NCBI GenBank assembly: GCA_019056785.1
Contig: DXJV01000084.1
Span: 64,001-128,000 of the forward strand
Length of the DNA: 64,000 nucleotides
From: Candidatus Heimdallarchaeota archaeon
Lineage (GTDB): Archaea > Asgardarchaeota > Heimdallarchaeia > JABLTI01
Reading direction: 5' to 3'
Shown here: piece after piece, positions 6,823 through 48,493 of the stretch
How the letters are laid out: every line of letters starts with the position of its first letter
Position numbering within the stretch: the stretch's first letter is position 1
Made by a program: the position numbers and the translations under genes
Notes under the pieces: model-generated
What the model was told of the DNA's origin: nothing
What the model saw: the letters and a program-made list of their open reading frames with translations, nothing else
The model's database searches: none

Positions 6823-9300
6823 TTAATTATCCTTCTTTTTCAAAGCTAATTGAACGTTTTCCAAAGCCTGTTTGCACAAGTGAAAATTATTTTTCGTTAT
6901 CTTATGATCACTAAAACGCGCTTCCTCATAACGCATTACTAGCATTGTGATGTCCCGGACAGGAACACGATTTGTAGAATTGACAATTCGAGCTAATTCT
7001 CTCGGAGAGAGCTTAGTAGCCTCAGAGATAAATAAATCCTGTATACAGAGTAATTCGAATGCACGATAGCACAAGATTACGGCACGACGATAGTCCTTAG
7101 CTTTAGCAGCTTCATCAAGCATTTTCATGACTGTCGAAAGATCGAGCCCTTCTCCCAATTCGCCTACAGCAAGAGTCTTTTTCGCTTTCCGGAAGCGCCC
7201 GAAAGCATAGATAACTGAAATTAGCACAATTAATGATACAGTTGATACAAGTATTCCAATTGCAAGTTTATCTGACAAATTCAAACCTCCATTTGGTTGT
7301 GTTGATGACGGTGGGGTTGTGGATGATGGTGGAGTAGCAGCAGGAGCACTAACCTCCATTTGGAAGGTGAAAATGCTGCTGGGGTCATCATTGAATGTGA
7401 TAGTAATAGTGTAGTTATTAGCTGGAAACCTGAGGAATCCAGCTGAGGGCAAAGTGAGATTTCCCGCACTATTTAATGTTTCATTATATGTTATGAATCC
7501 TCCGATTTGGATAACTATTGCACGACCGCCAACTCCCCTACCAAAATTGTCTGTTATAGCAGTGTGGAAAGTAAAATTCGTATAATTGTAAATAATGTTC
7601 CCGGCAAGGGTGCTAACTCTTGAGCCATCAATTATTTCAGTTCGATTAAGCCAAACTCTAATCTGGACAGATGTAAAGACATTAACCAAGAAACTGGTAT
7701 TGGAGGCAGTATAATATCTTGTAGTGCCTGTTGTTAAATAAACAGTGCCATTTTTCAAGGCAGGGTTTACTGTTTCAGGAATTTGTAAAAGTAGATTGTA
7801 ACTCCCAGAACTAGATGTTATTGCACTAACTGGTATCCCAAAGTCCTCCCATTGAGCTGACACTGAAATATTCTCTATGCCAACATTACTAAATGAATCC
7901 CGAATTGTGCCGGTGATTGAGATGTTCTCTCCAGGCATTGCCAAAACAGTGCTTGAAGTTACAAGTGAGCCATTAACAAGGGGTGTTGCGACGGTGGAAT
8001 TCCCGTAAATGGTAATATTATGATATTCCACACTTGCAGTTATGCCTTGACCGGGGGCAACATCTACAGATAATGGATGATCACCAACGGTTAAAGAATT
8101 GTTTAAAATAAAGGTGGTACTAAAATTGCCGTCAGCAGCAGAAGCAAAACTATGAACAGTTGTAGAACTATCGGCTAAAACATTCAGATTGACCGGAAAA
8201 CCAAACGGATTGCCGTTAGTATCGGTAATTTGACCTGAGAGAGAAATGCTAGTAATCCCCCGAAGAACGCTGGGGTAGAGGAAAGGCGCGGGAGGTAAGG
8301 GGTTATCAATGGAAAAAGTAATTCCTGCCCCAGAAAACACTTCAATGCTTTGTGAAGTGTTACACCAGTCGGCCGCAGGAGAAGACAATTGGGAGGCAGA
8401 GGTAATCGTTCCAACAACATACGGAAGACCCAATGTTGTGAGGTTATAAGAAGCAATAAGAATATGAGAACCTAAAGAGGTTGTACCTGGAACAATAAAA
8501 GTTGTATGAGCAATTAACCCACTAATTGAGACTTCAGTCACATTCCCAAGCCAGCTAAAAGTTATGTTTGTACCTTCAGCAGCTGTGATTGGTTGGGGGT
8601 TAGAAAGCGTACTATTATCAAAGAATAAAGCAGCATCAGCAGTAAAGCCATTGTTTCGACGAACAATTGTTTGATTTACTTGCATTAACATTATACCGTA
8701 AGCATAACATTCAATTGTATCAGTCGTAAATTGACGATTATCCTCGATGGGCCCAAGTAGGGGATCGCCAGGAAAAACGGAATAAACTGTTTGCTGCCCT
8801 GCAGATTTGGAATGATCATTATCAACACAAGTAATGGTAAAATCGCCATTACTATTCGTTGTACCTTGGCCAATAAGATAATTATTTTCTAAATTAGTCC
8901 TATCTGTCTCGTATTCTGCCCAAGTAAAATGCTCCCAGAAAATCTTAATTGGTTCTCCGGGAATGCCTTCGCCAGTAGAGTTATCTACAAGCCGGCCCGT
9001 AACAACAAATGCTTCCCCCCGAACAATGGTCGTTGGGTTTAAGGACTCAAGATGATGAGAATTTTGATTCGGAGTCGATTGGGCAGACATTATTGTGTTA
9101 GCAGCATCAGCAGGCAAAATAGTTGCTGTAAGAACAGTCGAAGAAGACGCTTCCCCTGGTGGTAGGTTATTAACTGAAGAGGAAGGAACCGAAGTTGGAG
9201 GAAATAGGATGGAAGAAAAGGCCAGTAGAATGAGGAAAACACAAAAACCCAGTACAATAAAGACCGAGTACTTATAGGGAGAAGTTTTTCTTACCGCCAA
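6823..9300 (-). CDS. Surface protein with Ig-like repeats, a TM helix and a C-terminal DUF4129 domain
   Basis: Signal/TM anchor, Thr/Ser/Asn-rich beta repeats (GRLVD..GEGI, GQITDTNG, GTIRD), PPSST linker, TM, then DUF4129 motifs AVILCY..F, SPRE, YEEARFS. Confidence 0.85.
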   Translation of the reverse strand: MAVRKTSPYKYSVFIVLGFCVFLILLAFSSILFPPTSVPSSSVNNLPPGEASSSTVLTATILPADAANTIMSAQSTPNQNSHHLESLNPTTIVRGEAFVVTGRLVDNSTGEGIPGEPIKIFWEHFTWAEYETDRTNLENNYLIGQGTTNSNGDFTITCVDNDHSKSAGQQTVYSVFPGDPLLGPIEDNRQFTTDTIECYAYGIMLMQVNQTIVRRNNGFTADAALFFDNSTLSNPQPITAAEGTNITFSWLGNVTEVSISGLIAHTTFIVPGTTSLGSHILIASYNLTTLGLPYVVGTITSASQLSSPAADWCNTSQSIEVFSGAGITFSIDNPLPPAPFLYPSVLRGITSISLSGQITDTNGNPFGFPVNLNVLADSSTTVHSFASAADGNFSTTFILNNSLTVGDHPLSVDVAPGQGITASVEYHNITIYGNSTVATPLVNGSLVTSSTVLAMPGENISITGTIRDSFSNVGIENISVSAQWEDFGIPVSAITSSSGSYNLLLQIPETVNPALKNGTVYLTTGTTRYYTASNTSFLVNVFTSVQIRVWLNRTEIIDGSRVSTLAGNIIYNYTNFTFHTAITDNFGRGVGGRAIVIQIGGFITYNETLNSAGNLTLPSAGFLRFPANNYTITITFNDDPSSIFTFQMEVSAPAATPPSSTTPPSSTQPNGGLNLSDKLAIGILVSTVSLIVLISVIYAFGRFRKAKKTLAVGELGEGLDLSTVMKMLDEAAKAKDYRRAVILCYRAFELLCIQDLFISEATKLSPRELARIVNSTNRVPVRDITMLVMRYEEARFSDHKITKNNFHLCKQALENVQLALKKKDN

Positions 9301-9414
9301 CAGGATTCATACCACCAGATCAAATTGTCTTACATGGTTCAATTACTCTTTTATTATTATTATTCTAAAATGTAAACCACTTATTTATAGATTCTTAATT
9401 GTGCACTTTAAAAA

Positions 9415-9755
9415 AAGCGGATCGAAGAAGGTGGAAAGGATAAAGACCTTCAAAAATTTACTAAACCAGGTCGATGGTCGGGCTTAGCACCAGTAAACTG
9501 GGCTTAGGGGCCGACCATCTGTTTGAATAACACTTCAACGGTTTGGCATTCTAGGACTCATCAAATTGTGTTATTCCAATCTGGCTCTTACAATTTCACC
9601 ACTTTTGGAACACCATTCTTCTATCGGGCAGTAAGAAGATTCCCCAAACTCTTGTGGCTCAGAGTCTATTCAATACAAGGAATAGCTCTCCTGTTTGAGG
9701 GCGTCCTATGATGAAATGATAAGCGCGATTACTTTTCCTTAGATCCTCAAACACA
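9415..9755 (-). ncRNA. Candidate structured non-coding RNA (~340 nt), family not recognised
   Basis: At least six stems visible: 9692-9700/9745-9753, 9661-9671/9680-9689, 9604-9610/9642-9648, 9525-9533/9568-9576, 9473-9481/9511-9519, 9427-9432/9446-9451. On the minus strand a TTTTTATT box lies ~25-30 nt upstream and a T7 tract follows the last hairpin. No credible ORF. Confidence 0.55.
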
Positions 9756-9855
9756 TTCTATCTATTATACACTTACCAATAAAAAAGTTACCTTTCAACC
9801 TTTTCCTTTTTTGTTCAACTCTTTCTTCTCACCGGCTAATTGTCTATGTTATTTT

Positions 9856-9941
9856 TTACAGGAGCGCAATTACAGTTTATTGTAATAGAATTACATAGAT
9901 TTAAATACTCATTTATGTAAGTTAAGTATAGGAAAATGTAA
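9856..9941 (+). promoter_or_regulatory. TATA box flanked by TTACA/TGTAA inverted repeats; probable operator of the downstream ArsR-type regulator
   Basis: ATTACA-N6-TGTAAT at 9869-9886; TTACATAGAT/ATTTATGTAA flank TTTAAATA (9900-9907); six half-sites within 86 bp. Confidence 0.55.
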
Positions 9942-9956
9942 TTAAGGAGAAGAAAA

Positions 9957-10055
9957 ATGATGCGTTGGAAAAAACGAAAAGTCAAAGAACAAATCAGGAA
10001 AGAATTAGAAAAAATAAGACTAAAAATGGGATTAGTTGTAGAGATGAGAAACTAA
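9957..10055 (+). CDS. Small basic protein (32 aa), not in the ORF track
   Basis: MMRWKKRKVKEQIRKELEKIRLKMGLVVEMRN*, preceded by AAGGAGAAGAAAA, the same RBS-like context that precedes the next gene. Confidence 0.5.
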   Translation: MMRWKKRKVKEQIRKELEKIRLKMGLVVEMRN

Positions 10056-10071
10056 AAGGAGAAGAAAAAAG

Positions 10072-11124
10072 ATGTCAAATAAAAGAGAAAAAAAGAGAAT
10101 AGAACTTGAAAGAGAAATTCAAGAATTACAACGAAAATTACAAAGACTCTATGCTAAGGAAGGAGAAGAAGACGAGGAAGTGGATTTTGTCCGTCCATTA
10201 CCACCATTACCACCAACACCACCGAGGGCAGGAAAAAGAAAAACAATCTATAGTACAACTTTAAAGGAAGGCGAACCAAGCGAAAAAGCCAGGAAAATCG
10301 AGAAAGAACGAATGCGACTGCAACGAGAGAAACGCCGGGAAGAATTAAATAAATTACGGCAAGAATTAAATGTACGCGAAAAAGAGTATCAGAAACGCAA
10401 ACGAGAATTTGAGCGACTTCGGCGGGAGATTCGTGAAAAGGAGCGACTCGTTCGTGAAAAAGAGCGAGAACTGAGAAAAAGGAGTTATGGAAGTTACTCT
10501 TTTGATATGGACCTTGATGAGGATATTGAAGGCATGACTTCAGAACTCGAAACACGCCTTGGTGAGTATACTCGGTCCATCCTGGCATCAGTCGCTGAAA
10601 GCTTGAAATCCTCAATGGGGATTGTTATAGGCTCTACCAGCGAAGTCGGCAAGGATCTGAAGACTGTTGGGAATGAGCTTGGTAAGATTGGAAAAGAGAT
10701 CACTCAAAAAATCACCAAAGATTTGTATGGCACTGTTGGGCCGAGAATTCCCACTGATAAATTAGAAGAATTCTATGAGATTGGCGCAAGTATAGTTTCA
10801 GCAATTGGCGATCCAAATAGACTCCGAATTTTGAAGGAATTGGAAAAAGGCCCCATGTATCAAAAGGAATTGAGTGAAATTACCAATCTCCGGGGCGGGA
10901 CATTTAAACACCATATGGACAAACTCCTTGATGAGAAGGTGAAGTTTGTCACCCAAGAAGTCGTGCGTGGGCGCTATATCTTAACTACACGCGGCCGTGA
11001 AGCTTTGAAATTAGCTGAAATACAATATATACGCTATCTCGAGGAGAAGGAGAAAACAAAACGCCGGGAAAAAGCATCGGCATCAAAGGATTCCGATGAG
11101 GAATTTGATGTGAAAATTCAATAA
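10072..11124 (+). CDS. ArsR-type winged-helix regulator with a long N-terminal charged coiled coil
   Basis: C-terminal SAIGDPNRLRILKEL..GP....EL......GGTFKHHMDKL...GRYILTTRG; N-terminal E/R/K-rich helices. Confidence 0.8.
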   Translation: MSNKREKKRIELEREIQELQRKLQRLYAKEGEEDEEVDFVRPLPPLPPTPPRAGKRKTIYSTTLKEGEPSEKARKIEKERMRLQREKRREELNKLRQELNVREKEYQKRKREFERLRREIREKERLVREKERELRKRSYGSYSFDMDLDEDIEGMTSELETRLGEYTRSILASVAESLKSSMGIVIGSTSEVGKDLKTVGNELGKIGKEITQKITKDLYGTVGPRIPTDKLEEFYEIGASIVSAIGDPNRLRILKELEKGPMYQKELSEITNLRGGTFKHHMDKLLDEKVKFVTQEVVRGRYILTTRGREALKLAEIQYIRYLEEKEKTKRREKASASKDSDEEFDVKIQ

Positions 11125-45784: not shown

Positions 45785-45894
45785 GGTCTCGTCAACTCAT
45801 TCCAAACAAATTGTTTACCTTTCAAAATGTACGCTTGCTTCTTTTGAAAAACCTTTTGACACAGAACAGAAAAAGGGAAGGAAAAAGAACCAAG

Positions 45895-46122
45895 CTATTG
45901 AGAAGCAGAATCTGGCTTTTCAGAAGTCGCCTCTTCTTTGGCGCCCGGTTTTTTAATGAAAGCAACAACCATTACGATTAGGCCAATGCCAAAAATGATA
46001 ATGCCAAACCATAAAAGCCAGTCAGACCATGCGAGTGGGACATAAAAGATAGAACCCACAATAACCATTGTTATTCCAATTACAAACATAATACCAGCAG
46101 CAATCAAAGGACCTTTTCTCAT
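45895..46122 (-). CDS. Small two-TM membrane protein
   Basis: 75-aa helical hairpin. Confidence 0.6.
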   Translation of the reverse strand: MRKGPLIAAGIMFVIGITMVIVGSIFYVPLAWSDWLLWFGIIIFGIGLIVMVVAFIKKPGAKEEATSEKPDSASQ

Positions 46123-46252
46123 AGAGACACTTCCTATTATTCGTGACTACCATTTAAACTTAAATTAAATATTTTATGATTGTTTTTCACCAACATGGAA
46201 ATTAAAAGATTGTGCTAAATGCCTTAAAATAAGTAAGGGAGAAAAAGTGACT

Positions 46253-48493
46253 TTAAATGCTTGGTTTGAGGAGTTTTGCTTTCTCAGGGGCTTTTTGCTT
46301 CAAAAGATCCACAGCAAAGTCAATAAAAGCAGGGTCAAAGTCTTTGAGAAGGTCTTTAATTTCTTGTTTAGATGGCATAGAATCAGGCGGAAATTGAAGC
46401 CGCTTTTCTAACCTCGCAATTTCGGCGAACATCTCATTTATTTTCTCGCGAATGAATTTCGGACGGTCCTTTGAACGCCGGCGCCACATTTGCCGTAAAA
46501 ACGTATGGATGTATTCAGAACGTTTCCCAACAGCATTCATAGCCCGAAGATTCACTTTAATTGCTCCTTTAAATAGCCTATCGGTGCCTTCTTGAGCGCC
46601 TATCATATCGAACTGCTCAAGTGCAATGTTTGCATAATTTGTTGTCCAAATCTGGGCTCGAACGGCTTTATGGGGGGCAAAAATAGCAAGTGCCTCAATA
46701 ATATGGAAAACGTTAAGAGGGTCATCCCCCATCACAACAATTGGCTCGCCAACTAACAGTGCACGAACCGCCACGTCCAATCCTTTTCGAATGTAGAAAC
46801 CTGCAATATACGCACAGTCTTTGTGAAGTCGGATTAAACGTTCGGAGAGACTCAAACCAGAATCAAGAGCAGCAAATCCAAAGGCTTTTTTTACTTCTGT
46901 AAGATAGAGCTCAGGTGAACGCCCTTCAATTTTCAAGGTATTAATATCGCGAGCAATTTTCAGAAGCATAGAAGCAAAGGTCGTTATTTCTTTGAGATAT
47001 TCTTTTGCGTTGGAAATTTTCCGGGTTTTTTTGACGAGGTTTTTCGCAAATTCCGAAGCAGAACCACCGATCACTTTGTTTTGATCCAGATCAAGGATTG
47101 TTGCCCATGAATAAAATTTCGTCAATTCTTTTGGAATGGCAATGATATCGATGTCCTTAGGATGAATAAAAGTAGAACTTTTCGTATAAAGGAGGTCTCT
47201 ATGAGGTGAGAGAAGATTCAACGTTTCAAATAAAACGTCCACTATAGGGTTTTCAAATATGGAAGGTTGACTGCTAGTGATGACAATTAAATCGCCCATA
47301 AGAAGAGCTTCGAAAATATTTTCCAGGTCTCTTTTAAAGAGCTTTTGTAAGAGAAAGGGGTCCTTATTTTTATCATTTGGTATGCGAATTTTTCCGGTAA
47401 CAAACCCTTTTTCTCGTCGCAAAGAGTTTGATGGTAAAAAGCCATTTTTTGGGATTATTATTGTCATCTGGTGATTTTTATCGATTTCAATAGCAATGGG
47501 GTCAACTTTCAATTTAATGCCTTTTGCCTCTTTCAACTGCCCTTTACTCCCTTCTACAACCACTTGTTCCGGTGCAACTGCTTTTTTATCCGGTTTTGTC
47601 GTAAGAGGTTGCCCCAGTAAAGAATCAGTTGGAGGCAACTCTTCCTCCCAGGTAGGGGGCGGCATCATTGCTAAGCGTGATTTTGTTTCAGGTTCTTTTT
47701 TCTCCGAGGGAGCAATAGAAGGACTGGTAACAACAGGTGGTGAAGTGGCAACTGGTTCCTGAGAAGGAGAAGAAACTTCAGCTGGACGTTTCTGAAAGGT
47801 AATGCGTTGTTTTTCGACAGAAGGTTTATGAGTTGCAAATGATTTTGGCGCCCCTTCTTCTCCAAAAGGTTTGACAGAATAGTAAACTCTATTGGAAATA
47901 GTAGTTTTGTAAAGATAACCATAGCGGTAGATATCATTTAGCTGGCTTGCAACTTCCTCTGGGGTTAAACCTGTTACTTGTGAAATCATATCCGGCGTAA
48001 CAACTTGCATTTTTACGAGGACCAAAGCAACCATTTGCAATTCGGATGGAAGATTCAAAACCTCAAAAGCATCTAGTTCCTTTCTTGAGCTCGTCGGACC
48101 GATTTTTCGCTGCTCAAAAGCTTTAACCACATCAATTATGGACTTGTCGATCACCCGAAATTTTTGGATGTCTTTTTGCTCAAAAGTTTGGATCGATTGC
48201 AAATCAAACATAGAGAAAAAGACATTTTCTAGCTCCGGAAACAAAATAGAGGGAATACTGATTTCTTCTAAATCCGCCCCGACAACAAACAAGACATTAT
48301 TATTATAATGATAATAATATTTGATTCCTTCAAAAATAATATCATGAACTTTTTCGGCATAGTTTGTAAGAGGGCTTGTTAACCATCCATAAAACTTTTC
48401 AAGACGCAAGCGCTCTTCTTCGTTGGTCATTTTTATAAAACGAATGCCTGCAACAGGGATGTCATTAATTATTATCCATACGAATTGAATCAT
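46253..48493 (-). CDS. Longin + winged helix + Pro-rich linker + tandem cDENN-like domain protein
   Basis: N-terminal MIQFVWII....P and LFVVGAD (longin); central T...IS..TG.....V...L..I...GYL (wHTH); two repeats FEALLMGDLIVI / VRALLVGEPIVV. Confidence 0.7.
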   Translation of the reverse strand: MIQFVWIIINDIPVAGIRFIKMTNEEERLRLEKFYGWLTSPLTNYAEKVHDIIFEGIKYYYHYNNNVLFVVGADLEEISIPSILFPELENVFFSMFDLQSIQTFEQKDIQKFRVIDKSIIDVVKAFEQRKIGPTSSRKELDAFEVLNLPSELQMVALVLVKMQVVTPDMISQVTGLTPEEVASQLNDIYRYGYLYKTTISNRVYYSVKPFGEEGAPKSFATHKPSVEKQRITFQKRPAEVSSPSQEPVATSPPVVTSPSIAPSEKKEPETKSRLAMMPPPTWEEELPPTDSLLGQPLTTKPDKKAVAPEQVVVEGSKGQLKEAKGIKLKVDPIAIEIDKNHQMTIIIPKNGFLPSNSLRREKGFVTGKIRIPNDKNKDPFLLQKLFKRDLENIFEALLMGDLIVITSSQPSIFENPIVDVLFETLNLLSPHRDLLYTKSSTFIHPKDIDIIAIPKELTKFYSWATILDLDQNKVIGGSASEFAKNLVKKTRKISNAKEYLKEITTFASMLLKIARDINTLKIEGRSPELYLTEVKKAFGFAALDSGLSLSERLIRLHKDCAYIAGFYIRKGLDVAVRALLVGEPIVVMGDDPLNVFHIIEALAIFAPHKAVRAQIWTTNYANIALEQFDMIGAQEGTDRLFKGAIKVNLRAMNAVGKRSEYIHTFLRQMWRRRSKDRPKFIREKINEMFAEIARLEKRLQFPPDSMPSKQEIKDLLKDFDPAFIDFAVDLLKQKAPEKAKLLKPSI

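Follow-up and report, generated by a model that had tools for sequence, protein, structure and literature searches.

Large noncoding RNAs (ncRNAs) with a complex fold proven by covariation are rare, and those of known function are mostly ribozymes, riboswitches or cores of ribonucleoproteins. OLE, raiA, ROOL, GOLLD and HEARO are orphan large structured ncRNAs; the OLE RNA of Firmicutes, about 600 nucleotides (nt) long, works together with the product of the adjacent oapA gene. In archaea, especially in the Asgard archaea, which are the closest known relatives of eukaryotes, we know of almost no such large RNAs beyond RNase P RNA, signal recognition particle (SRP) RNA and guide small RNAs (sRNAs). 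Here we describe an intergenic segment of about 300 nt that is almost certainly a conserved structured RNA. It lies on the minus strand of a 64,000-nt stretch of DNA from a Candidatus Heimdallarchaeota archaeon (assembly GCA_019056785.1, contig DXJV01000084.1, positions 64,001 to 128,000; hereafter referred to as the window), in which an earlier note, made from the sequence alone, had pointed to an independent structured RNA of no recognised family. In the literature that we searched, no such RNA is described for Asgard archaea.

The window RNA resembles OLE, raiA, ROOL, GOLLD and HEARO in its restriction to one lineage, its multiple helices, its invariant unpaired bases, its many compensatory changes and a function that cannot be read from the sequence. 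Like OLE in particular, it is linked in a fixed manner to a gene that encodes a membrane or envelope protein. Unlike these RNAs, all of which are represented in Rfam, it is archaeal rather than bacterial, and it has no sequence or model similarity to any of them. At about 300 nt, it is also shorter than OLE (600 nt), and a binding of the RNA to the product of the neighbouring gene would be suggested by pure analogy with that system. GOLLD and ROOL have been addressed by cryo-electron microscopy (bioRxiv 10.1101/2024.12.08.627333).

Results

A conserved fold on the minus strand

The RNA lies in a gap of 741 nt (9307-10047) that is devoid of open reading frames (ORFs) of 100 amino acids (aa) or longer. 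The G+C content of its core (9455-9755) is 42.9%, compared with 28-30% in the spacers on both sides. The minus-strand sequence of 9405-9765 folded at -103.8 kcal/mol, as against -84.9 ± 5.5 kcal/mol for dinucleotide shuffles (z = -3.45; none of 100 shuffles was as good), and the plus strand of the same region attained a z of only -2.16. The gap to which the earlier note had pointed is real.

Blastn found one copy each, at 70-75% identity, in eight of ten further members of the genus and in the only other genus that the family (family f1) contains; the flanking proteins are just 44-64% identical in BLASTP alignments. No second copy was found in the window's own genome. Scanning public collections with a 20-mer from the invariant loop described below returned five metagenome contigs and nine genome records, nearly all of the latter titled as metagenome-assembled genomes (MAGs) of Heimdallarchaeota or Promethearchaeati. 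We also sampled loci independently of the RNA, by fetching ten contigs through homologues of the downstream 825-aa protein without using the RNA sequence. Both RNA domains were present upstream, on the same strand, in all ten. The distinct homologous sequences total 21, all of them from Heimdallarchaeota MAGs or metagenomes, and the first 13 full-length sequences are 52-93% identical in pairwise comparisons.

One covariance model was constructed for each domain: R1 (145 positions) for the 3' domain and R2 (169 positions) for the 5' domain. On the minus strand of the window, they score 112.7 bits at 9457-9596 and 93.5 bits at 9581-9733, respectively. Pairs were counted on model-guided alignments of all 21 sequences, and slid controls had the helix partners shifted by 1-3 columns. 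In the 3' domain (37 pairs), 89.1% of the cells were paired, compared with 32-48% in the slid controls, and 20 of the 37 pairs had changed on both sides. The 5' domain (45 pairs) gave 89.8% against 40-53%, with 27 pairs changed on both sides. The nine helices of the two domains together include compensatory changes at 47 of 82 pairs, and the observed covariation score was reached by none of 500 shuffles in either domain. These alignments had been fitted to the models, a caveat that is eased because plain MAFFT alignments, made before any model, gave the same picture: RNAalifold found 52 pairs, 24 of them compensatory, and the pair count in one such alignment (A4) was 88.8% paired with 23 compensatory pairs. 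G-U cells outnumbered A-C cells by 87 to 23, and the minus strand is therefore the RNA; the opposite strand would pair less well (82.3% versus 88.4%). These results show a fold that is maintained at the RNA level and belongs to the minus strand.

Architecture of the two domains

The features of the locus are listed in Table 1. The 5' end of the core was estimated from the TATA-like box, and its 3' end from the first T5 run; the RNA possibly extends as far as 9410. In the 5' domain, which is closed by the long-range helix H1, H2 leads into a junction from which H2b-H3 and H4 branch. Pc, which abuts H1, closes the 3' domain; H5 and the long hairpin H6 lie inside it. The last G of the H1 3' strand is common to the first pair of Pc.

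Table 1. Positions of the RNA, its helices and its neighbours in the window
Feature	Positions	Strand	Basis
Conserved RNA core, about 300 nt (5' leader, 5' domain and 3' domain)	9452-9755	minus	both covariance models match here
H1 5' strand: CUU (9721-9723) and AUUUCAUC (9710-9717)	9710-9723	minus	covariation
H1 3' strand: GGUGAAAU (9593-9600) and AAG (9587-9589)	9587-9600	minus	covariation
H2 5' arm GGACGC	9701-9706	minus	pairs with GUGUUC 9608-9613
H2 3' arm GUGUUC	9608-9613	minus	pairs with 9701-9706
H2b 5' arm CUCAAAC	9693-9699	minus	pairs with GUUUGGG 9643-9649
H2b 3' arm GUUUGGG	9643-9649	minus	pairs with 9693-9699
H3 hairpin: AGAGCUAUUC (9680-9689) with GAAUAGACUCU (9661-9671)	9661-9689	minus	alignment, covariation
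Conserved unpaired motif GAGCCAC, 3' of H3	9654-9660	minus	A(G/A)A(G/A)CCAC in 20 of 21 sequences
H4 hairpin: UCUUCU (9634-9639) with AGAAGA (9617-9622), loop 9623-9633	9617-9639	minus	covariation
Pc 5' arm GAGCCAG	9581-9587	minus	pairs with CUGGUUU 9463-9469
Pc 3' arm CUGGUUU	9463-9469	minus	pairs with 9581-9587
H5 hairpin: GAAUAACAC (9568-9576) with GUGUUAUUC (9525-9533), 34-nt loop	9525-9576	minus	covariation
Invariant loop segment GAUGAGUCCUAGAAUGCCAAAC(C)	9540-9562	minus	identical 22-mer in 21 sequences
H6 long hairpin: 9511-9519/9473-9481, 9502-9507/9483-9488, 9498-9501/9490-9493, bulged U	9473-9519	minus	covariation
TATA-like box of the RNA gene (CTTTTTTATTGG) with an A-rich stretch before it	9776-9787	minus	putative promoter function
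Candidate 3' end signals: T5 (9452-9456), GAAGGU/ACCUUC hairpin (9427-9451), T7 (9410-9416)	9410-9456	minus	direct sequence reading
Promoter-like boxes of the downstream operon: CTATAAATAA (9381-9390), A/T box (9348-9370)	9348-9390	minus	predicted function
825-aa gene, CarboxypepD_reg (DUF4129 in homologues), first of the DUF4350/MoxR operon	6823-9300	minus	Pfam
ArsR/SmtB-type helix-turn-helix (HTH) gene, coiled-coil N-terminal part	10072-11124	plus	Pfam, NCBIfam

Support is distributed over all the helices. H1 has 10 of its 12 pairs changed on both sides among the 21 sequences. H2 is paired in 94.4% of the cells, with three of six pairs compensatory, and its 5' arm reads GAGCAC in most homologues. 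H2b appears in the homologues as CUCAAG/CUUGAG, CUCAAC/GUUGAG or CUCU/AGAG. The inner helix of H3 has compensatory changes at six of nine pairs; the H3 of the window is shorter than that of most homologues and lacks their CGGGU loop. H4 is paired in 96.8% of the cells, and two of its pairs show UA-to-CG double changes, both of them in homologue L037 and one in L127, reading UCUCC/GGAGA. Compensatory pairs number four of seven in Pc, six of 11 in H5 (91.8% of the cells paired), six of 11 in the lower helix of H6 and four of eight in its upper helix. A kissing interaction of CGGGU in the H3 loop with (G/A)CCCG in the H4 loop would be compatible with 93% of the cells, with no double change in the alignment as it stands; L037 has UGGGU/ACCCA only after manual re-reading, and the window and L124 are without the H3 loop. 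Inspection by eye gave no convincing K-turn, GNRA-receptor or T-loop motif.

About half of the detailed secondary structure drawn in the earlier note was right. Its hairpins AGAG-CUAUUC/GAAUAG-A-CUCU, CUUCU/AGAAG, GAAUAACAC/GUGUUAUUC and GAUGGUCGG/CCGACCAUC (the last with a CCAG/CUGG cap) correspond to H3, H4, H5 and H6, respectively, and all have covariation support in the homologues. The remaining helices have to be redrawn. A 5' hairpin had been proposed between UGUUUGAGG and CCUCAAACA, but covariation pairs its 3' arm with GUUUGGG (9693-9699/9643-9649, H2b), and the bases of the proposed UUUGGGG/UUCCAAA helix belong to H2b and H2. The suggested multibranch closure of CAGG with CCUG gives way to Pc, in which CCUGGUUU pairs with GAGCCAG at 9581-9587. 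A possible pseudoknot between UAGGAC and the loop sequence GUCCUA was a coincidence of one sequence; UAGGAC is the covarying 5' arm of H2 and reads AAGAGC in most homologues.

An invariant apical loop

The loop that caps H5 is 31-34 nt long across the family and has a 22-nt core, GAUGAGUCCUAGAAUGCCAAAC, that is the same in all 21 sequences, including those of the ten loci fetched through the neighbouring protein only. It is unchanged even in L127, whose H5 and H6 stems are almost entirely rewritten. A 23-mer of the loop occurs with zero mismatches, once per genome, in all ten carrier genomes (the window's own included), and it was not found in the other families of the class even when three mismatches were allowed. 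Other unpaired stretches that do not vary are AGAGCCAC, GCCCGA (the H4 loop), GAGAAA and GAAUGG. The earlier note had counted four copies of RAGCC; AGAGCCAC and the first CUAAGCC proved to be conserved, but the other two copies did not. Helices that vary and yet stay paired, combined with a fixed 22-nt loop and fixed unpaired bases, fit a scaffold that presents a fixed recognition surface.

We searched for sequences that the loop could pair with. Genome-wide, the best antisense duplexes formed a continuous background (-30.7 and weaker), and none of them lay in ribosomal RNA (rRNA). Against the 16S and 23S rRNA genes, the best duplex had -19.3 kcal/mol, whereas shuffled loops averaged -20.9. 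For the downstream mRNA start, a 7-bp pairing (AAUGCCA/UGGCGUU) was found in six of 13 loci and was not better than that of shuffled loops. As no pairing partner rose above the background, a protein partner is the more likely reading.

The rRNA genes of this genome have features of their own. The 23S rRNA gene (C99:38470-42544) spans 4075 nt, against the 2987 positions of the model, implying large expansion segments; such segments are reported for Asgard archaea (PMC7594248). The 16S rRNA gene is in two parts, each at the end of a contig (C18:5-838 and C1:28-744).

Comparison with known RNA families

With Rfam 15, the whole window gave zero matches at the gathering thresholds, and a search of 9250-10050 at E≤10 gave nothing relevant. 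When the window and ten homologues were searched at E≤10, only scattered chance matches appeared, with riboswitches, ribozymes, snoRNA-like sRNAs, OLE, raiA, ROOL, GOLLD and HEARO all included among the models. The RNA matches no catalogued family, and its family is not yet described.

RNase P RNA and SRP RNA share with the window RNA an archaeal origin, a length of about 300 nt, a two-domain organisation, long-range closing helices and a G+C content above that of the surroundings. Archaeal RNase P RNA is further marked by a P4 pseudoknot that its CR-I and CR-V sequences form, and archaeal SRP RNA by helix 8 and helix 6 motifs. The archaeal RNase P RNA model (RF00373, threshold 84 bits) found no match in the region even at E≤10, and the archaeal SRP RNA model (RF01857, threshold 96.5 bits) found none there either. 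The true RNase P RNA (C6:5822-6156, 140.9 bits) and the true SRP RNA (C14:10244-10550, 124.1 bits) of this genome are on different contigs; the candidate is therefore neither. The stretch GGUGAAAUUGUAAGAGCC, which we take to be reminiscent of a conserved part of RNase P RNA, is no more than the H1 3' strand, and its sequence differs between homologues.

Several other assignments were tried and rejected. The catalytic core of the hammerhead ribozyme consists of CUGAUGA ... GAAA with G12; the loop of the window RNA contains GAUGAG...CCAAAC with C in place of G12, no stem II is possible, and there was no Rfam hammerhead match. Guide sRNAs of the H/ACA or C/D type have ACA (or C and D) boxes at fixed positions and a guide complementary to rRNA; such an sRNA is not indicated, as no conserved ANA follows H5 and the loop-rRNA duplex was not better than shuffled. 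UCCUA, AAACCAU, AGAGCCAC and GAUGAGUCC, presumably snR30- or U3-like, came with no Rfam match, no ACA box and no rRNA complementarity. ARAGORN found zero transfer RNA or transfer-messenger RNA genes in 8800-10400. A likeness of GAGCCGG/CUGGUUU to group II domain V is not conserved in one clade (AAUACCGG) and had no Rfam match, and an Sm-site reading of AAUUUUUGA after the core is likewise not conserved.

The interpretation put forward in the earlier note, a structured ncRNA of no known family, is thus supported. Each of the tests run that might have refuted it, namely the Rfam search at both stringencies, the location of the genome's RNase P RNA and SRP RNA, the search for homologues and their covariation, and the comparison of folding energy with dinucleotide shuffles, came out in its favour.

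Phyletic range and genomic position

Within family f1, R1 and R2 detected the RNA wherever the contigs of a genome span the locus. In the two family genomes without a match, the contigs break at the locus: one of them has the HTH gene at base 17 of a contig, and both have the 825-aa gene only as truncated copies at contig ends. When 83 genomes of the class were searched with R1 and R2, the RNA was found in none of the 71 that lie outside family f1. R1 applied to 151 genomes of the phylum gave two 25-bit matches, which we judged to be due to chance; both are inside protein-coding ORFs, one of them that of a proteasome-subunit-like protein. R1 without filters showed no trace of the RNA upstream of the HTH homologues at eight loci or genomes of other families. 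The class and phylum searches used filters and incomplete MAGs, and their outcome means 'not found in those searched'. Among the genomes searched, the RNA is single-copy and confined to one family of Heimdallarchaeia.

Its position is fixed between the ArsR-like HTH operon and the 825-aa DUF4129/DUF4350/MoxR operon. In all 21 loci the gene order is constant, with the HTH gene and a 233-aa gene divergent, then the RNA, and then the 825-aa gene, DUF4350 and MoxR on the RNA strand; the HTH gene was divergent from the RNA wherever that flank was read. Across the class, genomes carry one homologue each of the HTH gene, and the 233-aa gene after it is conserved class-wide. The 825-aa protein is present in all 11 genomes of the RNA's family and has no full-length homologue in the other families of the class. 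Among 5.8 billion proteins, it has 22 cluster representatives, all at least 41% identical and all from Heimdallarchaeota. This protein has the same narrow range as the RNA, so that, judging from their distribution, the RNA and the operon appear to have arisen, or to have been retained, together. In all the public assemblies that we examined, gene callers had left a gap of about 630-1000 nt here without annotation, with the exception of an ORF of about 30 aa (29-35 aa) called beside the HTH gene in three assemblies.

A free-standing gene or a leader

A (C/T)TTTTWAWW box, A-rich on its 5' side, stands about 25-30 nt upstream of where the conserved bases of the RNA begin. The distance was constant in the 13 loci in which it was read, and the box was also seen in the flanks of the 21 loci; the T-rich upstream box of the earlier note is therefore kept in homologues. 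A run of at least five T residues lies between the RNA and the next promoter-like box in 13 of the 21 loci. The GAAGGU/ACCUUC hairpin followed by U7, also proposed in the earlier note, exists in the window, but its sequence is not conserved among the homologues. On the other side of the RNA, 20 of the 21 loci have an AWTAAATA box, 44-106 nt 3' of it, followed by a second, AGATATA-like box 10-40 nt before the start region; these boxes look like the operon's own promoter. Such signals favour a separate gene, and on balance we lean towards reading 9755-9452 of the minus strand as a free-standing gene for a structured ncRNA of about 300 nt rather than as a leader.

A possibility that we hold more tentatively is that the RNA is a cis-acting 5' leader of the 825-aa/DUF4350/MoxR operon, riboswitch-like or protein-sensing, whose fold would decide whether transcription halts at the T-run or continues past it, or whether a second promoter further downstream is required. 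Large riboswitches and leader RNAs, too, lie upstream of an operon on the same strand and have invariant junction bases. The window RNA is on the strand of the operon and upstream of it, at a distance of only 100-180 nt in most loci, and the linkage holds in all 21; it shares the narrow phyletic range of the 825-aa protein, has a multi-junction fold with invariant unpaired bases, and lacks the T-run in eight of the 21 loci. However, a simple leader would not need the AWTAAATA and AGATATA-like boxes that stand between the RNA and the start codon in 20 of the 21 loci. The window RNA also differs from such leaders in having no Rfam riboswitch or other family match and no detectable switching helix. 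No conserved alternative pairing of the expression-platform type was found: pairing of the purine-rich 5' leader with the 5' strand of H1, as a conformational switch, had a mean z of just -1.1, and the homologues' own leaders paired no better than foreign ones (-10.4 versus -10.0 kcal/mol). Nor, as described above, does the loop pair with the mRNA start better than shuffled loops do. There are also points that weigh against the free-standing gene. Complete linkage to the downstream operon and a shared orientation with it would also be expected of a cis-regulatory leader, and in the eight loci without a T5 or longer run (one clade of six and two others) read-through is possible. The independence asserted by the earlier note thus has the TATA-like box and the separate promoter-like boxes on its side and the T-run in 13 of 21 loci as its weaker part; both the ends and the independence of the RNA are what we infer from these signals. 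Furthermore, no convincing complement of the loop was found in rRNA, elsewhere in the genome or at the neighbouring mRNA start, which argues against a pairing target but points to no particular protein, and inspection by eye showed no known protein-binding motif of the K-turn kind.

It is exceedingly improbable that the region is not an RNA at all but a DNA-level element, a short protein-coding gene or a set of chance hairpins in an A/T-rich spacer. A 62-aa antisense ORF is present (9523-9711, plus strand), and A/T-rich spacers do fold by chance; against these stand the 47 compensatory pairs with the strand-specific excess of G-U over A-C, the indels of 1, 2, 4 and 5 nt between homologues, and the ORFs across the region, which change strand and frame from one homologue to another. 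We give little credence, too, to the idea that the 5' domain is a very distant relative of IMES-1 (RF02034, a marine-metagenome RNA), which would make the RNA a divergent member of a known orphan family. IMES-1 is likewise an orphan structured RNA from environmental sequence only, and one homologue (L010, from genome G005) reached 24.1 bits over the whole length of the IMES-1 model (E = 0.004 within 451 nt), with CCACCAA, AAGAGAAA, CUCGA and AAGAG in common and in the same order. This best score, obtained in one of ten members, is far below the IMES-1 gathering score of 81 bits, and it was not reproduced: the other nine family members (pieces of about 385 nt) and the window gave no match at E≤10. 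Equally good 24-bit matches occur at unrelated places in other Heimdall genomes, and the topology differs, as H2b encloses H3 in the window RNA.

Weak IMES-1-like matches were also seen in genus g7, at G049:C157:2751-2836 (L064, 24.5 bits) and G061:C60:11037-11208 (L080, 16.7 bits). Each of the two shares its strand with the HTH homologue, which follows about 6.3 kb downstream, and they may be a conserved element of that genus.

Other features of the surrounding DNA

The side of the gap that faces the HTH operon has signals of its own. A stronger TATA at about 9899-9907 (TATTTAAAT) adjoins a perfect palindrome, TGTAATTCTATTACA (9881-9895), with a further CTGTAAT half-site beside them. TGTAA...TTACA palindromes are present at the same place in all homologous loci and also upstream of HTH homologues in other families, as in CTTACATAAAAATGTAAG. 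As judged from its sequence and placement, this site is probably an autoregulatory operator of the ArsR-like protein. On the plus strand, the TATA is followed by AAGGAGA and then by a short ORF (9965-10102, 45 aa, TTG start) that overlaps the start of the HTH gene and may be a small leader gene of the HTH operon; the ORFs of 29-35 aa called in three homologous loci are at this same position. In family f2 (L096-L100), a gap of 700-1250 nt lies ahead of the HTH gene, compared with about 170 nt in family f1, and this gap appears to hold small same-strand ORFs of, for example, 115-117 aa. Elsewhere in the window, ORFs of 100 aa or longer are also missing from two gaps of about 460 nt each (31049-31506, G+C 0.30; 45797-46255, G+C 0.35).

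Discussion

If the RNA is a free-standing gene product, it would be transcribed from its own TATA-like box, its transcript would usually end at the oligo-T run, and it would act as a folded RNA in its own right. Its helices would then build a rigid scaffold on which the invariant loop, together with AGAGCCAC, GCCCGA and GAGAAA, forms the surface where a conserved partner docks. A protein is the most likely partner, and, judging from the genetic linkage, it may be a product of the co-inherited neighbouring operon, in analogy to OLE RNA and the product of its adjacent oapA gene. We therefore consider, as a tentative proposal by analogy, that the RNA could be a dedicated RNA component, or a ligand- or protein-sensing control element, of a lineage-specific 825-aa DUF4129/DUF4350/MoxR envelope module. 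If this is true, the RNA would be an archaeal counterpart of the OLE-OapA membrane ribonucleoprotein or would represent a new class of large archaeal riboswitch, in either case with the invariant 22-nt loop as the site of contact. The well-supported structure, two working covariance models, the invariant loop and a fixed uncharacterised neighbour together make the function of this RNA directly testable.

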